A DNA stretch of 64,000 nucleotides. Source: Candidatus Woesebacteria bacterium (GTDB lineage Bacteria > Patescibacteriota > Microgenomatia > UBA8517). Shown piece after piece: positions 25,478-35,180 of this stretch. Where the stretch lies: positions 785,639-849,638 of the forward strand of contig CP066693.1 of assembly GCA_016432525.1 (NCBI GenBank), given 5' to 3'. The notes under the pieces were generated by a model that did not search any database, was not told where the DNA came from, and worked only from the letters and a program-made list of their open reading frames with translations. Both the position numbers and the translations under genes were made by a program. How positions within the stretch are numbered: the stretch's first letter is position 1; each line of letters starts with the position of its first letter.

Positions 25478-26047
25478 TTATTTGCTGAAAATCCGCTGAA
25501 AAATCCTACCAATACTAAATCTCTGGCTTTCTTTATTTAAAAAATCAACTTTTTTGGCAATCTCATCTTTTCTTGAAATCTCGCGAATATCCTCTATATC
25601 TAAAATATCTTTCGAGATTCCAAAAATGGAAAGTGGACTCAGGTATAAAACATTAACCCCAAAGATCTCAAAAGCTCTTAAAAAACTATCCACAAAACTT
25701 TTATTTATTGCAAAAACAACAGAGGCAGTTTTACCATTGTAAATTTTCGCACTAACTTGTCCTGGTTCAAAAGGAAGACTATCTAAAAATTTCTTAACCT
25801 GCTCTTCTCTCTCGCCTTCATTCAAACTTACAGACTTTTGGTAGACAACACTGTCTCCAAGTATAATTTTTACTTTTCTATCACTTAACTTTGCGTTTTT
25901 AAAAAAGGAAAGCAAAAAATTTACAAATTTCTCTCTATCTATTATTTCCTGATTCAAAACCAGATTAACAGGATAATCTGATCTATTTCTCAACCCGTGT
26001 GGATCATACAAAATTACAAACTTACCTTGAATGTAGAAAAAACTCAT
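25478..26047 (-). CDS. hypothetical protein at the distal end of the pilus locus
   Basis: No recognised motif. Assigned to the pilus locus by position only. Confidence 0.3.
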   Translation of the reverse strand: MSFFYIQGKFVILYDPHGLRNRSDYPVNLVLNQEIIDREKFVNFLLSFFKNAKLSDRKVKIILGDSVVYQKSVSLNEGEREEQVKKFLDSLPFEPGQVSAKIYNGKTASVVFAINKSFVDSFLRAFEIFGVNVLYLSPLSIFGISKDILDIEDIREISRKDEIAKKVDFLNKESQRFSIGRIFQRIFSK

Positions 26048-26541
26048 TATCTAGAAGCAGAGATATTTGTTCCGCCCTCAGCTCCACAAGCTTTAACAGT
26101 AACAATTCCATTTGTATCTACTACCACGCTGTAACCAGTTTGTGCAGCTGTAAAGGTTCCTCCAGAAGGATCAACTGGCATGGATTTTAAATATTTAGAA
26201 AGATTTTGCGTTCCACTCATTAAATCTACACAAGCAGCTTGTGTAACTGCACATCCTGCTGTCGCAATCGCACATCCAGTTGCTGCAGTTCCCAATTGAG
26301 CCTCTGTACCAGCTGCTGGCATATTTGTAGGAAGTGAACCTTTACTGTCTACTATTGATTGATGAATTGCCGAAAGAATCGAGTCAGTATCAGATGTTCT
26401 TCTTGCGTCTTTTGCATCTTTAAGTCTCTGCCCTGGATTTAGCGCAACAAAAACTGCAACTGCTAAAACTGCCAATATCGCAACTACTAAAAGAAGTTCT
26501 ATGAGTGTGAAGCCTTCTTCCCTTTTATAAAATCTTTTCAT
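26047..26541 (-). CDS. type IV pilin (prepilin-type N-terminal cleavage/methylation domain)
   Basis: MKRFYKREEGFTLIELLLVVAILAVLAVA with Glu at +5. Cys residues near the C-terminus. Confidence 0.8.
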   Translation of the reverse strand: MKRFYKREEGFTLIELLLVVAILAVLAVAVFVALNPGQRLKDAKDARRTSDTDSILSAIHQSIVDSKGSLPTNMPAAGTEAQLGTAATGCAIATAGCAVTQAACVDLMSGTQNLSKYLKSMPVDPSGGTFTAAQTGYSVVVDTNGIVTVKACGAEGGTNISASR

Positions 26542-26583
26542 TGATAATTCAGATTAGTAAATTCATTAAACCTTTGTCAAGTA

Positions 26584-26955
26584 TTAAATCTCTATCCAGT
26601 TCGTAATCGTAATTTGAGTTGTTCGAAAAAATACAATTCTTACCTTTCTTTGATAATTGGCATCATTTGAGGTAACGGTCACATCCCAATTTGTAGGACC
26701 CGAAAGTGCGTAAGAAATAACACAATTACCCTCAGGCCTTGTAATTGTCGTCCCACTAAAACTAGCGTTATCGTGTATTTTTAGAAGTAAATCTTCTGAA
26801 CAGCCTTCTACAAGATTAAGATTATTCTCCCCCAAAAGAGAATTTAGTGATATTTTTCCTTCAGAGACAGACGAAATTACAACTGCAGTAGTGAGACTTA
26901 TTAAAATTGCAGATATGATTAAAATTGTTGTCGTTGCAATAAACCCTTGATTTTT
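26584..26955 (-). CDS. putative minor pseudopilin (non-canonical)
   Basis: MKNQGFIATTTILIISAIL hydrophobic N-terminus without Glu at +5. Called by position within the pilin operon. Confidence 0.3.
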   Translation of the reverse strand, partial: KNQGFIATTTILIISAILISLTTAVVISSVSEGKISLNSLLGENNLNLVEGCSEDLLLKIHDNASFSGTTITRPEGNCVISYALSGPTNWDVTVTSNDANYQRKVRIVFFRTTQITITNWIEI

Positions 26956-26959
26956 CATA

Positions 26960-32428: not shown

Positions 32429-32794
32429 TTATTTAATAAGCTTATTTACTTTTTCAAGAAGCTCTGCCATTGAAAGATCACTTTTCACAACATAATCATT
32501 TGCTCCTAATCCCAACGCCCTATCTATATCCTCTTTTTGGCCCAAATTAGATGATACAATTATAGGCGTACTCTTCCATTTATCACTCTTTCTCATTTCA
32601 GACAAAACAGAAAATCCATCCTTCACAGGCATCATCAAATCCAAAATTACAAGATCAGGATTAAATTCATCTAAAGCTGAAAGCGCCTCATTGCCATCTG
32701 AAGCAAGTCGTGTTTCAAATTGAGCTTTGGTAAGCTTTACTCGATAAGCATTTGCTAAAAATTTGTCATCTTCCACTACTAATATTTTCTTCAT
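32429..32794 (-). CDS. stand-alone response-regulator receiver domain (CheY-like)
   Basis: MKKILVVEDD...DLVILDLMMP...K. No output domain. Confidence 0.8.
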   Translation of the reverse strand: MKKILVVEDDKFLANAYRVKLTKAQFETRLASDGNEALSALDEFNPDLVILDLMMPVKDGFSVLSEMRKSDKWKSTPIIVSSNLGQKEDIDRALGLGANDYVVKSDLSMAELLEKVNKLIK

Positions 32795-33162
32795 AATTTG
32801 TTTTTGAAAACTTCATTAACTTTAGAAACCACGTCCGTCAAACTCCAGTCTGTTTTAATAAGATAGTCATAAACACCTTTCTTCTTACTCTCTACAATTC
32901 TATCTCCGTCACCCAAATTTGTAAGTATTATAACAGGAACACTAGATCCCCAATGATCCTCCCGTAATTTGGTGAGTAAACTCATCCCATCCATTCCAGG
33001 TAATATTATATCCAAAAGTATAAGGTCGGGATGCTCTTTTAAGGCAACCTCCAAGCCTTCCTTTCCATTGCTTGAACTTATAATTTCGTATCCCGCGTTC
33101 GTTAGCTTCTTAGAAAGGACCTTCAAAATTGGTCTCTCATCCTCAATTATTAGAATTTTCAT
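32791..33162 (-). CDS. stand-alone response-regulator receiver domain
   Basis: MKILIIEDE...DLILLDIILPGMDG...K. Confidence 0.8.
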   Translation of the reverse strand: MKILIIEDERPILKVLSKKLTNAGYEIISSSNGKEGLEVALKEHPDLILLDIILPGMDGMSLLTKLREDHWGSSVPVIILTNLGDGDRIVESKKKGVYDYLIKTDWSLTDVVSKVNEVFKNKL

Positions 33163-33538
33163 TTAATACTTCGTTGACAATCTTTATGATATCCGAAAGC
33201 GTATTTTCTGCCTTCAAAATATATTTTTTAATTCCCATCGAAGCCAAAGCATTCTGTTTCTGTTCACTGGCAGAATTGGAAACAACAACAACCGGAATTT
33301 TGGACCATAAGGGATTAGCTTTAATCATCTTCATAAAATCCAATCCATTCATATCTTTAAGATAATAATCAAGCCAGATTAATGCAGGGCTAGTATTCAT
33401 ATTTTTCAGATAATCAACAGCCTGCTCCGCACTTGAACAGGAAACTACATTAAACCCAGACAATTCAAGTTTTCGAGCTATGGCCTGAAGCAAAAGAACC
33501 TCATCCTCAATCACCATTATTGTCTGTTTGTCTTTCAT
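33143..33538 (-). CDS. stand-alone response-regulator receiver domain
   Basis: QTIMVIEDE...ALIWLDYYL...K. An alternative start at 33556 would overlap the upstream gene by 20 nt. Confidence 0.75.
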   Translation of the reverse strand: MKDKQTIMVIEDEVLLLQAIARKLELSGFNVVSCSSAEQAVDYLKNMNTSPALIWLDYYLKDMNGLDFMKMIKANPLWSKIPVVVVSNSASEQKQNALASMGIKKYILKAENTLSDIIKIVNEVLNENSNN

Positions 33539-33560
33539 TTGGTTAAACTCTACCATAGTC

Positions 33561-35180
33561 CTAAGAAATAGTCACCTCTCCTTTTTTAGGTTGCGATCCT
33601 GTTAAAGGCAAACTAAACCAAAAAGTAGTACCCTTGCCTTCATTACTTTCAAACCATATTTTTCCGCCAGACGATTCAATCACAGCTTTCACCAAATAAA
33701 GTCCCAATCCCGTTCCGTCAGTTTCAACTTTAATTACATTGTCAGCTCTAAAAAACTTCTGAAACACTCTTGGCTTTTGCCCCTCAGGAATTCCGTAACC
33801 ATTATCAGATACGCGAGATACCACATCATTTCCTGATTTTGAAACCACAATTTCAATATCTCCACCTTCTGGGGTATATTTTATTGCGTTAGTCAAAAGA
33901 TTTACATAAACATGCCTAATGAGTTTTGGATCAATATTAATTAGAGGTAGACTACTGTGAACACTCAAACCCAATCGATGCTTCTTTTCAATAAGTTTAG
34001 GTTGAAGCTCAGTAATTACACTATCTATAAGTTCTTTCAGGTTCGTTGGTTTGGGGTCAATAATAATGCGGCCTGATTCTATTCTTGAAATATTCAAAAG
34101 TGAATTTACAAGATCAATCATTCTCTCATTTGAATCATAAATATCTTTTATTATTTCTCTCTGCTCTTTTGTTATTTCACCAATGTCACCAGCTAAAAGC
34201 ATTTCAGAAAACCATTTCATGGCTGACAAAGGGGTTCTAAGCTGATGCGATGCAAGAGAAATAAACTCAGTCTTCATACGATCCACCTCATGCTCATATG
34301 AAATATCGCGAAACACAATTACTCCTCCAATAACTCTTTCGCCTAAAATAACAGGTGAAGCAGTTATAGCAGCTGGAAATTTAGTTCCATCCTTTCTTAC
34401 ATAGTAAAGATTTCGAGAGATAGTTCTCCTACCAGTTGAAAGAGCAGTATGGGATGGTCTCTGTTCTATTGTTGGTTCATTTCCTTTCTCATCTTGAAGT
34501 TTTATTACATGAAAAACTGGTTTTCCCAAAATCTCATCTTCAGCATAACCAAGCGATTCCAACGCTTGTCTATTTACATAAGTCAACTCTCCTCCATCGT
34601 CAAAACCTATAACTCCTTCTCCTATGTTGTTCAAAAGTGTCTTGCTTTTTGCTTCAGCCTCAGAGAGTTTTTTAAATGAGTCATCGTTAGCTTTTGCAAA
34701 TACTTCCATTTCATCTTTTACCCATGAAACAAGCGAAAGTAAAAGTTTTTTATCTTTCTCACTAAATTCTCGAGGATTCTTATCTTTTAATCCAAGCGCT
34801 CCAATTTTAAAACCATCAGAAGAAGTTAAGGGAACTCCAGCATAGAATCTAACATTTGGAAATCCCACAACCTGTGGGTTATCCAAAAATCTTTCATCTT
34901 TTAGAGTATCAGAAACTACAAACGGCTCATCTTGTAAAATCACATAAGAAGAAAAGGATATTTGCCTTTCCTCATCTCTTTGAATTATTCCACCACTTGC
35001 TATATGAAACACATTTTGCCAATCAACTAAAGTTATTTCTGCAATGGCAACATCAAAACAATCAATCAAAAAACGTGTTATTTTATCAAACCGCGGATCA
35101 GCAGCTGCACCTATAAGATTCAGTTTTCTTAACGCATTCACTCTCTCATTGTCCCTATCTGGCACAGCCGCTGGCGTCAT
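33561..35180 (-). CDS. cytoplasmic GAF/PAS sensor histidine kinase
   Basis: No transmembrane helix. GAF-like N-terminus, PAS, H-box SHQLRTPLSAM, N/G boxes NLLTNAIKYTPEGG and GTGLGL. Confidence 0.85.
   Translation of the reverse strand: MTPAAVPDRDNERVNALRKLNLIGAAADPRFDKITRFLIDCFDVAIAEITLVDWQNVFHIASGGIIQRDEERQISFSSYVILQDEPFVVSDTLKDERFLDNPQVVGFPNVRFYAGVPLTSSDGFKIGALGLKDKNPREFSEKDKKLLLSLVSWVKDEMEVFAKANDDSFKKLSEAEAKSKTLLNNIGEGVIGFDDGGELTYVNRQALESLGYAEDEILGKPVFHVIKLQDEKGNEPTIEQRPSHTALSTGRRTISRNLYYVRKDGTKFPAAITASPVILGERVIGGVIVFRDISYEHEVDRMKTEFISLASHQLRTPLSAMKWFSEMLLAGDIGEITKEQREIIKDIYDSNERMIDLVNSLLNISRIESGRIIIDPKPTNLKELIDSVITELQPKLIEKKHRLGLSVHSSLPLINIDPKLIRHVYVNLLTNAIKYTPEGGDIEIVVSKSGNDVVSRVSDNGYGIPEGQKPRVFQKFFRADNVIKVETDGTGLGLYLVKAVIESSGGKIWFESNEGKGTTFWFSLPLTGSQPKKGEVTIS

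Follow-up and report, generated by a model that had tools for sequence, protein, structure and literature searches.

Type IV Pilus Control in Described Systems

In the Pil-Chp system of Pseudomonas aeruginosa, several stand-alone CheY-like receivers and one kinase, ChpA, govern the pilus extension motor. PilG promotes the recruitment of the extension ATPase PilB, PilH counteracts it and is possibly a sink, and direct contact between PilG and PilB has not been reported (PMC11656802). The present analysis concerns a type IV pilus locus of similar outline in a Candidatus Woesebacteria bacterium. It lies in a stretch of 64,000 nucleotides of contig CP066693.1 (positions 785,639 to 849,638), which is called the window in the following. 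There, the genes for a histidine kinase and three stand-alone receivers, named REC1, REC2 and REC3, precede pilB, pilC and a set of pilin genes. In contrast to Pil-Chp, neither a CheA-type kinase nor a methyl-accepting chemotaxis protein (MCP), CheW or any methylation enzyme is encoded in the window. Its pil-linked kinase is a soluble HisKA protein with GAF and PAS domains, and the regulatory genes lie within the pilB operon.

In the Tax1 system of Synechocystis, PixG binds PilB1 only when phosphorylated and in this form also binds the PilC N-terminus, and PixH is a fast-dephosphorylating receiver that lowers the phosphorylation of PixG (PMC11181946). Among described systems, PixG and PixH are the best precedent, in terms of mechanism, for the action of an output receiver and a sink on PilB. 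The systems differ in their kinases, PixL being a CheA-like hybrid with a photoreceptor MCP, and in the PATAN domain of PixG; the window has bare receivers and a HisKA kinase. PilS-PilR is similar in being a two-component system encoded among pil genes. However, PilS is a multi-pass membrane kinase and PilR is an NtrC-type sigma-54 activator of pilin transcription, and neither is present in the window.

HK853-RR468 of Thermotoga maritima also consists of a HisKA kinase and an output-less stand-alone receiver; to our knowledge it has no link to pili, and the resemblance is one of sequence class only. Two further cases in which proteins with a receiver fold are in communication with type IV filament machines are the archaeal CheY-CheF-archaellum coupling and TadZ with its atypical receiver. 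These differ from the window system in their machines and adaptors, and the receiver-like domain of TadZ is not phosphorylated.

A 2024 review of PilB cofactors covers c-di-GMP (cyclic di-GMP), PilZ/FimX, Pil-Chp and PdeK/PdeR, and contains no mechanism like receiver-pilB (PMC11656802). No description of kinase-receiver-pilB operons or of receiver-PilB fusions in the candidate phyla radiation (CPR), Patescibacteria or Microgenomates was found in the searchable literature, outside of which most subscription journals lie. In its proposed function, the window system resembles CheY-type control of type IV pili, yet it stands outside the Pil-Chp/Tax family and outside PilS-PilR.

Receivers and the PilB Motor

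The locus is one minus-strand array (25478-35180) with intergenic gaps of at most 42 nucleotides or small overlaps, according to the open reading frame (ORF) map. From 5′ to 3′, its genes encode the kinase, REC1, REC2, REC3, PilB, PilC, five pilin-like proteins and a PilM-like protein (Table 1), and the gene order in a sister strain is identical. A preliminary description of the sequence had listed a GAF/PAS kinase, three receivers, PilB, PilC and five pilin-like genes in this array, and Pfam and the ORF map place them as claimed.

The reading that we favor, with moderate confidence, is that the locus is a pilus operon with a built-in two-component module, in which phosphorylated receivers act directly on PilB and the additional receivers are sinks or modulators. 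The soluble GAF-PAS kinase would sense an intracellular cue, autophosphorylate on His312, and pass the phosphoryl group to the stand-alone receivers. Phosphorylated REC3 would be the output, which binds the extension ATPase PilB and switches or gates pilus extension. Its docking site is likely the N-terminal domain of PilB, an MshEN scaffold without c-di-GMP-binding residues. REC1 and REC2 would compete for phosphoryl groups, thereby acting as a sink and shaping the signal, or would address other parts of the machine. The sequences directly show the gene content, the intact active sites, the conserved linkage and the fusions. We infer the receiver-to-PilB connection from comparative genomics, while for the role of a sink, the sign of regulation and the kind of signal we rely on analogy with described systems. 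Patescibacteria have about 5 two-component genes per genome (PMC7137472), which makes the occurrence of four in one pilus operon unlikely to be incidental.

That PilB itself is the target is suggested by proteins of Parcubacteria in which a receiver is fused to PilB. In the PilB homologue of L030 (9467-11179, plus strand; compared loci are designated by L and a number), a receiver domain replaces the N-terminal domain, with a Response_reg match of 77 bits and a T2SSE match of 400 bits. Over the ATPase part, this protein is 57% identical to the window PilB. A database search with the L030 fusion gave an N-terminal receiver in 120 of the 120 best clusters (P0241-P0360), and the clusters are named Minisyncoccia, Paceibacterota and Yanofskybacteria, which are Parcubacteria. 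Further fusion loci are L091 (8001-9740) and L092 (8001-9722). The fusion operons comprise one or two kinases, a stand-alone receiver, the receiver-PilB fusion, PilC and pilins. The fused receivers retain Asp57 and Lys109, and share with the stand-alone pil-linked receivers an unusual Asn88 and the lack of Pro after Lys109. At position 87 they have Phe, not Thr or Ser.

The phosphodonors encoded beside receiver-pilB include soluble PAS-HisKA, seven-transmembrane HisKA, a sensorless HisKA core, a stand-alone Hpt and a CheA-like kinase. L011 has a stand-alone Hpt (9120-9515, plus strand) directly upstream of receiver-pilB in place of the HisKA kinase, and L019 has a CheA-like Hpt-HATPase-CheW protein (7928-9499, plus strand) directly upstream of the same pair. 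Since receiver-pilB is constant while the phosphodonor is interchangeable, the swapped donors also suggest PilB as the target.

In alignment, the window PilB has the invariant Walker region GPTGSGKT and the tetracysteine C445/C448/C485/C488, a feature typical of extension ATPases. The MshEN motif is a tandem RLGxx(L/V/I)(L/V/I)xxG(L/V/I)(L/V/I)xxxxLxxxLxxQ (PMC5013675). In MshE and PilB proteins with MshEN, the N-terminal domain is where regulatory input reaches the extension ATPase. The PilB of the window is similar in that the hydrophobic, helical MshEN scaffold is retained in its N-terminal domain (residues 8-60). In contrast, neither half of the motif retains the c-di-GMP-binding Arg, Gly and Gln, as is also the case in all 32 aligned Microgenomates PilBs, and in Parcubacteria the whole domain is replaced by a receiver. 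This loss of the nucleotide-binding residues suggests that the usual regulatory input at the PilB N-terminus is disabled, and is a third indication that the signal goes to PilB.

Whether PilB is a direct target of phospho-signaling throughout Patescibacteria, in trans in Microgenomates and in cis in the Parcubacteria fusions, with extra receivers that tune it, is in our judgement an evenly balanced question.

Conservation of the Module

Relatives of the locus were found by protein search and contig look-ups. A further 80 loci came from scanning metagenomes with an alignment of PilB sequences, and these were annotated with local hidden Markov models. A scan of genome contigs with the single PilB sequence found only 4 loci, none of them closely related. 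PilB homologues with 59-65% identity have a PAS-kinase and one, two or three receivers directly upstream of pilB-pilC-pilins. The taxa with this kinase-receiver-pilB-pilC-pilins order are Amesbacteria, Daviesbacteria, Woesebacteria and other Microgenomates. The informative loci are those with a long-form PilB (about 550-570 residues) of at least 49% identity and enough flanking DNA; about 23 of these 24 have one to three receivers in the cluster, usually together with a kinase.

The position of the kinase varies: its gene precedes pilB in some loci, separates pilB from pilC in others, and elsewhere lies at the far end. The last case is seen in L010, where the kinase-receiver pair is encoded on the opposite strand. 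In L016 (6007-7081, plus strand) and L026 (3419-4630, plus strand), a sensorless kinase core of 231 residues and one receiver are encoded between pilB and pilC. Retention of the linkage through these rearrangements argues for selection and not only for shared ancestry. Short-form PilBs (about 410-440 residues, without the N-terminal domain) and distant PilB-PilT-PilC loci are mostly without the module. The functional tie of the kinase and receivers to the pilus genes, as drawn in the preliminary description, is supported by this conserved linkage across Microgenomates, and the separation from pilB in related genomes that would have refuted it was not borne out.

The Parcubacteria fusions, which place the receiver physically on the ATPase, would be left unexplained if the receivers acted indirectly on pilus gene expression through a transcription factor, sigma factor, anti-sigma factor or RNA-binding protein encoded elsewhere. 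Such indirect control is unlikely, although stand-alone receivers can generally work through partner proteins and a distal partner is compatible with the content of the window. An OmpR-type regulator is encoded just downstream of the pilus genes (24784-25461), but the cassette to which it belongs, with kinase, HlyD and ABC genes, is absent from related pil loci. In L016 and L026, pilB and pilC flank the genes for the kinase and the receiver, which also speaks for direct action of the receivers on PilB and not for control of expression.

A Saccharibacteria locus, L002, was rejected as a bearer of the module. An unrelated gene separates its kinase and receiver from the end of the pil cluster, they are encoded on the other strand, and the link is too weak. 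L066 (6390-11291, plus strand) and L074 contain a PAS-kinase, a stand-alone receiver, PilB and an NtrC-type sigma-54 regulator, and their PilB is 40% identical to that of the window. A PilR-like gene is present in L066, which is a distant locus. This lineage is probably outside Patescibacteria, and the kinase-receiver-pilB theme may be wider than the CPR.

The Three Receivers

Response_reg is the sole Pfam domain in each of the three receivers. Alignment with CheY shows that all of them keep E12/D13, D57, S/T87, Y106 and K109 (CheY numbering), and the Asp and Lys residues, on which their designation as receivers in the preliminary description turned, are intact in all three. REC1, REC2 and REC3 are mutually 23-37% identical, which is no closer than their identity to the unrelated OmpR-type receiver of the window, and they are up to 45-62% identical to the best-matching receivers of other genomes. 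Low mutual identity and higher identity to receivers elsewhere indicate old, distinct paralogues and not tandem duplicates. Their phylogeny, raised earlier as a means of telling duplication from separate descent, likewise gives distinct origins and no recent duplication (bootstraps 92-100).

REC1 is 50-57% identical to the same-position receivers of L007, L009, L012, L014 and L021 (clade bootstrap 100/100), and 23-27% identical to REC2 and REC3. It belongs to a clade designated REC-A, whose members are always directly after the kinase. REC1 is presumed to be an accessory receiver, either a sink or a modulator. Derivation of REC1 from a hybrid kinase-receiver fusion was considered and rejected, as there are no such fusions among the compared loci.

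REC2, a branch of the core type, is closest to L022_1551, with 45% identity and a bootstrap of 92/100. Its identity is 37% to REC3 and 37-42% to the PilB-fused receiver domain of Parcubacteria. On these comparisons, REC2 is a rarer accessory lineage.

REC3, whose gene adjoins pilB, is 54-62% identical to receivers of L006, L007, L009, L012, L014, L021 and L049 (bootstrap 93/100). REC3-like receivers occur in every locus type, including those with one receiver. By identity and distribution, REC3 is the conserved core receiver, and REC1 and REC2 are accessory. The three-receiver loci L014 and L021 have the order A-core-D, while the window has A-B-core, and thus the three-receiver state arose more than once. 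The three consecutive receivers before pilB that had been described are present in the window, but they do not represent a conserved state, as relatives have one core receiver and zero to two accessory ones.

The residue two positions after the phospho-Asp is Tyr, His or Gln in the REC-A clade, whereas it is Ile, Val, Met or Leu in the core receivers. In receiver domains, this residue influences the lifetime of the phosphorylated state. The difference fits distinct phospho-lifetimes of REC-A and core receivers, and is suggestive only.

The closest solved relative of both REC3 and REC1 is RR468 of T. maritima (E 1e-22 and 1e-10, respectively). REC2 matches the structure of Spo0F with an E value of about 2e-17, and PleD and OmpR-family receivers match it equally well or better, which takes weight from the Spo0F match as a sign of a multi-step phosphorelay. 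In such a relay, REC1 and/or REC2 would be Spo0F-like intermediates that pass the phosphoryl group via an Hpt to a terminal receiver. The Hpt directly upstream of receiver-pilB in L011 and the Hpt-containing CheA-like kinase of L019 would fit this arrangement. The 64-kb window, however, contains no Hpt-like ORF of at least 70 residues, and none among its Pfam-scanned ORFs, while its kinase is of the plain HisKA type, which is able to phosphorylate receivers directly. The phosphorelay suggested in the preliminary description is not supported in the window, and we regard it as quite improbable there compared with direct phosphorylation of the receivers. The phosphate sink that the same description offered as an alternative is plausible.

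The Histidine Kinase

The description of the kinase as a cytoplasmic GAF/PAS protein is borne out by Pfam and hydrophobicity. No transmembrane helix was found in it, and its sole hydrophobic stretch is borderline and within the PAS domain. The phospho-acceptor is His312, and the N, G1, F and G2 boxes are at 427, 459, 473 and 489. In the catalytic core, most kinases of other pil loci share 38-68% identity with it, whereas the second kinase of the window shares only 29%. This indicates that most kinases of other pil loci are orthologues of the window kinase. The GAF module, as judged by direct similarity to the window's GAF, is present only in the window kinase among the compared loci.

The kinase is presumed to be the phosphodonor for the three receivers, and operon linkage and co-inheritance argue for phosphotransfer from one to the other. 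The scanned ORFs of the window include no CheA-type kinase (Hpt with P5/CheW-like domain), MCP or CheW. The window also has no membrane-bound PilS and no NtrC-type PilR, its pil-linked kinase being without a transmembrane helix and its receivers without an output domain. The system is accordingly neither PilS/PilR nor Chp, in agreement with what had been proposed.

Points to Be Weighed

A number of considerations weigh against direct control of PilB by phosphorylated receivers. The support for it consists of gene context and fusions. Position and the residue two after the phospho-Asp are all that tells a sink from an output among REC1 and REC2. The fused receivers, with Phe87, may signal otherwise than the stand-alone ones, and as they stand in place of the PilB N-terminal domain and not beside it, that domain need not be the docking site. 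The conservation among relatives is partly shared ancestry, and the loci are not independent. Co-transcription of the locus is assumed from gene spacing only. Finally, the window does not contain PilT, PilD or a complete PilM/N/O set, which precludes judgement of the functional state of the machine.

Composition of the Pilus Locus

Table 1. Positions of the kinase, receiver and pilus genes and of the adjoining cupredoxin gene in the window
Feature	Position	Strand	Basis
Cupredoxin, membrane-anchored, plastocyanin/azurin-like	35200..35712	-	Cupredoxin_1 52.9 bits, Copper-bind 42.3 bits
Soluble sensor histidine kinase	33561..35180	-	Pfam: GAF_2 (32.7 bits), PAS, HisKA (61 bits), HATPase_c (107 bits)
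REC1, 137 aa (amino acids), Asp63, Lys115	33143..33556	-	Response_reg 67.2 bits
REC2, 123 aa, Asp51, Lys103	32791..33162	-	Response_reg 82.5 bits
REC3, 121 aa, Asp52, Lys104, adjoins pilB	32429..32794	-	Response_reg 86.8 bits
PilB extension ATPase, 558 aa	30725..32401	-	T2SSE 420 bits, MshEN 44 bits
PilC platform protein	29656..30720	-	Two T2SSF repeats, 184.7 bits; three hydrophobic segments
Minor pilin, 144 aa, MKKG/FTLIE	29225..29659	-	N_methyl 25.5 bits; position conserved in related loci
Modular minor pilin (presumed), 581 aa, G/ILVVE	27483..29228	-	AlphaFold2 model, Foldseek, homologues
Minor pilin, longest ORF 207 aa	26960..27583	-	N_methyl 24.5 bits at residues 47-68; position conserved
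Pilin-like protein, 135 aa, without Glu5	26584..26991	-	N-terminal hydrophobic segment; homologues in position
Major pilin candidate, 164 aa, MKRFYKREEG/FTLIE	26047..26541	-	N_methyl 33.7 bits; 150-170-aa pilin conserved in related loci
Truncated PilM-like protein, 189 aa	25478..26047	-	jackhmmer, hhalign

Of the five pilin-like genes first described, three (29225-29659, 26960-27583 and 26047-26541) have N_methyl with the class III signal peptide G/FTLIE, and the 581-residue protein is supported by its model and homologues. The 26960-27583 pilin likely starts at Met35 (27481), which gives MKKELNLIRKTFEG/FTLIE, and the 26047-26541 product is the probable major pilin. The assignment of the remaining 135-residue protein (26584-26991) rests on weaker evidence. 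It likely starts at 26958 with MKNQG/FIATT and has no Pfam match; homologues of 127-140 residues are found at the same position in 20 loci, and the protein is presumed to be a fourth minor pilin.

The AlphaFold2 model of the 581-residue protein (predicted local distance difference test, pLDDT, 90.9) has the long helix and the head domain of a pilin and, in addition, a large domain that is all beta. The best compact structural matches of the beta domain in Foldseek are fucose-binding lectins of Photorhabdus, the seven-bladed propellers PLL/PHL, with template modeling (TM) scores of 0.65-0.70 (target-normalized). Nine Trp residues are invariant in 45 homologues. According to the model, the Trp-rich repeats remarked upon in the preliminary description are the blades of this predicted beta-propeller. 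The family is conserved across Microgenomates, and some of its members have N_methyl. The protein is presumed from the model to be a minor pilin that carries an adhesin, placed at the tip. In L009, the protein at the same position has a DUF4082/lectin-like domain instead of the propeller, which suggests an exchangeable adhesin module.

The last gene of the array, previously called hypothetical, encodes a truncated PilM-like protein. It was retrieved from the local set by jackhmmer seeded with a true PilM_2 protein of L016 (E 2.7e-19), and hhalign against canonical PilM gives a probability of 93.5% and an E value of 2.3e-7. The protein consists only of the N-terminal half of the actin-like fold and stops just before the transmembrane segment, while in relatives the PilM-like gene runs on into this segment and often contains a LytR_C domain as well. 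The profile of the family found no PilM match among PDB sequences, only small proteins at the C-terminal LytR_C positions. The single-sequence AlphaFold model of the 189-residue protein had a pLDDT of 40.9 and was unusable. The gene ends 16 nucleotides before the next gene, and the junction with the OmpR/kinase/HlyD/ABC cassette may be the place at which the C-terminal part was lost.

This anchorless PilM-like half is all that represents the PilM/PilN/PilO set, with no Pfam match to PilN or PilO in the scanned ORFs. The statement that pilT, pilM, pilN and pilO are missing is therefore valid for pilT, pilN and pilO in the scanned ORFs, and only partly for pilM. PilT, PilD, PilN and PilO were not found among the ORFs scanned, which did not include every ORF of at least 120 residues. 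The window has no second T2SSE homologue, and the scanned ORFs have no match to peptidase A24. The genes for PilT and PilD may be elsewhere in the 0.9-Mb genome.

Surroundings of the Locus

The gap between the cupredoxin gene and the start of the kinase gene is 19 nucleotides. The top minus-strand promoter-like site (35768-35739) is upstream of the cupredoxin gene, with which the transcription unit may begin. A consensus scan of the window found 33 promoter-like sites against 41.9 expected from shuffles, which is not above chance, and 7 terminator-like sites against 6.8 expected, so that no operon boundaries were obtained.

It is very unlikely that the two-component genes are an unrelated neighboring unit, such as a copper or redox response with the upstream cupredoxin: the close spacing, the promoter-like site before the cupredoxin gene and the copper-handling genes that flank the pil locus in L006 would suit this explanation, but the module follows pilB through several rearrangements, the cupredoxin gene is not next to the module in L007-L010 or in other compared loci, and the fusions tie the receiver to PilB.

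The copper-handling genes of L006 encode a CsoR-like protein, a copper ATPase and a DsbD-cupredoxin. In L007, the gene before that of the pil-linked kinase encodes an HbpS-like protein that binds haem. The cupredoxin, the L006 copper genes and the L007 HbpS-like protein could be hints of the sensed cue (metal, redox or haem), and none of them is conserved.

A second two-component system is directly downstream of the pilus genes and consists of the OmpR-type regulator and a kinase with two transmembrane segments (23799-24791), both on the minus strand. It is followed by an HlyD-type adaptor, an ABC ATPase and a MacB/FtsX permease, and the whole cassette comprises 20536-25461 (minus strand). None of the related pil loci examined contains it.

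The plus-strand GC skew is negative in nearly all 2-kb bins of the window (cumulative -5.25), and the genes are mostly on the minus strand. One report mentions a Microgenomates genome with strong strand composition bias (PMC7143001). No tRNA genes were found in the 64-kb window. Other genes in it encode a type IB topoisomerase (12098-13144, plus strand), a Fic-domain protein (16972-17955, plus strand) and a PD-(D/E)XK (Cas4-like) nuclease (37068-37901, minus strand), which have no evident tie to the pilus locus.

Biological Meaning

Patescibacteria have few conserved surface machines, of which type IV pili are one, and the question addressed here is how such reduced organisms time the building of pili. 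In cultivated Saccharibacteria, type IV pili drive host attachment and motility (PMC12206443, PMC9894109). With about five two-component genes per genome, the placement of four in the pilus operon marks pilus assembly as a principal regulated behavior. The fusions and the interchangeable donors provide a concrete, testable hypothesis of direct regulation of the PilB motor by receiver domains. The kinase, the receivers and PilB are small and soluble, and in-vitro testing is possible without cultivation of the organism. If true, the hypothesis would represent a previously unrecognized mode of PilB control, and likely the switch by which episymbionts deploy pili for host contact or DNA uptake.

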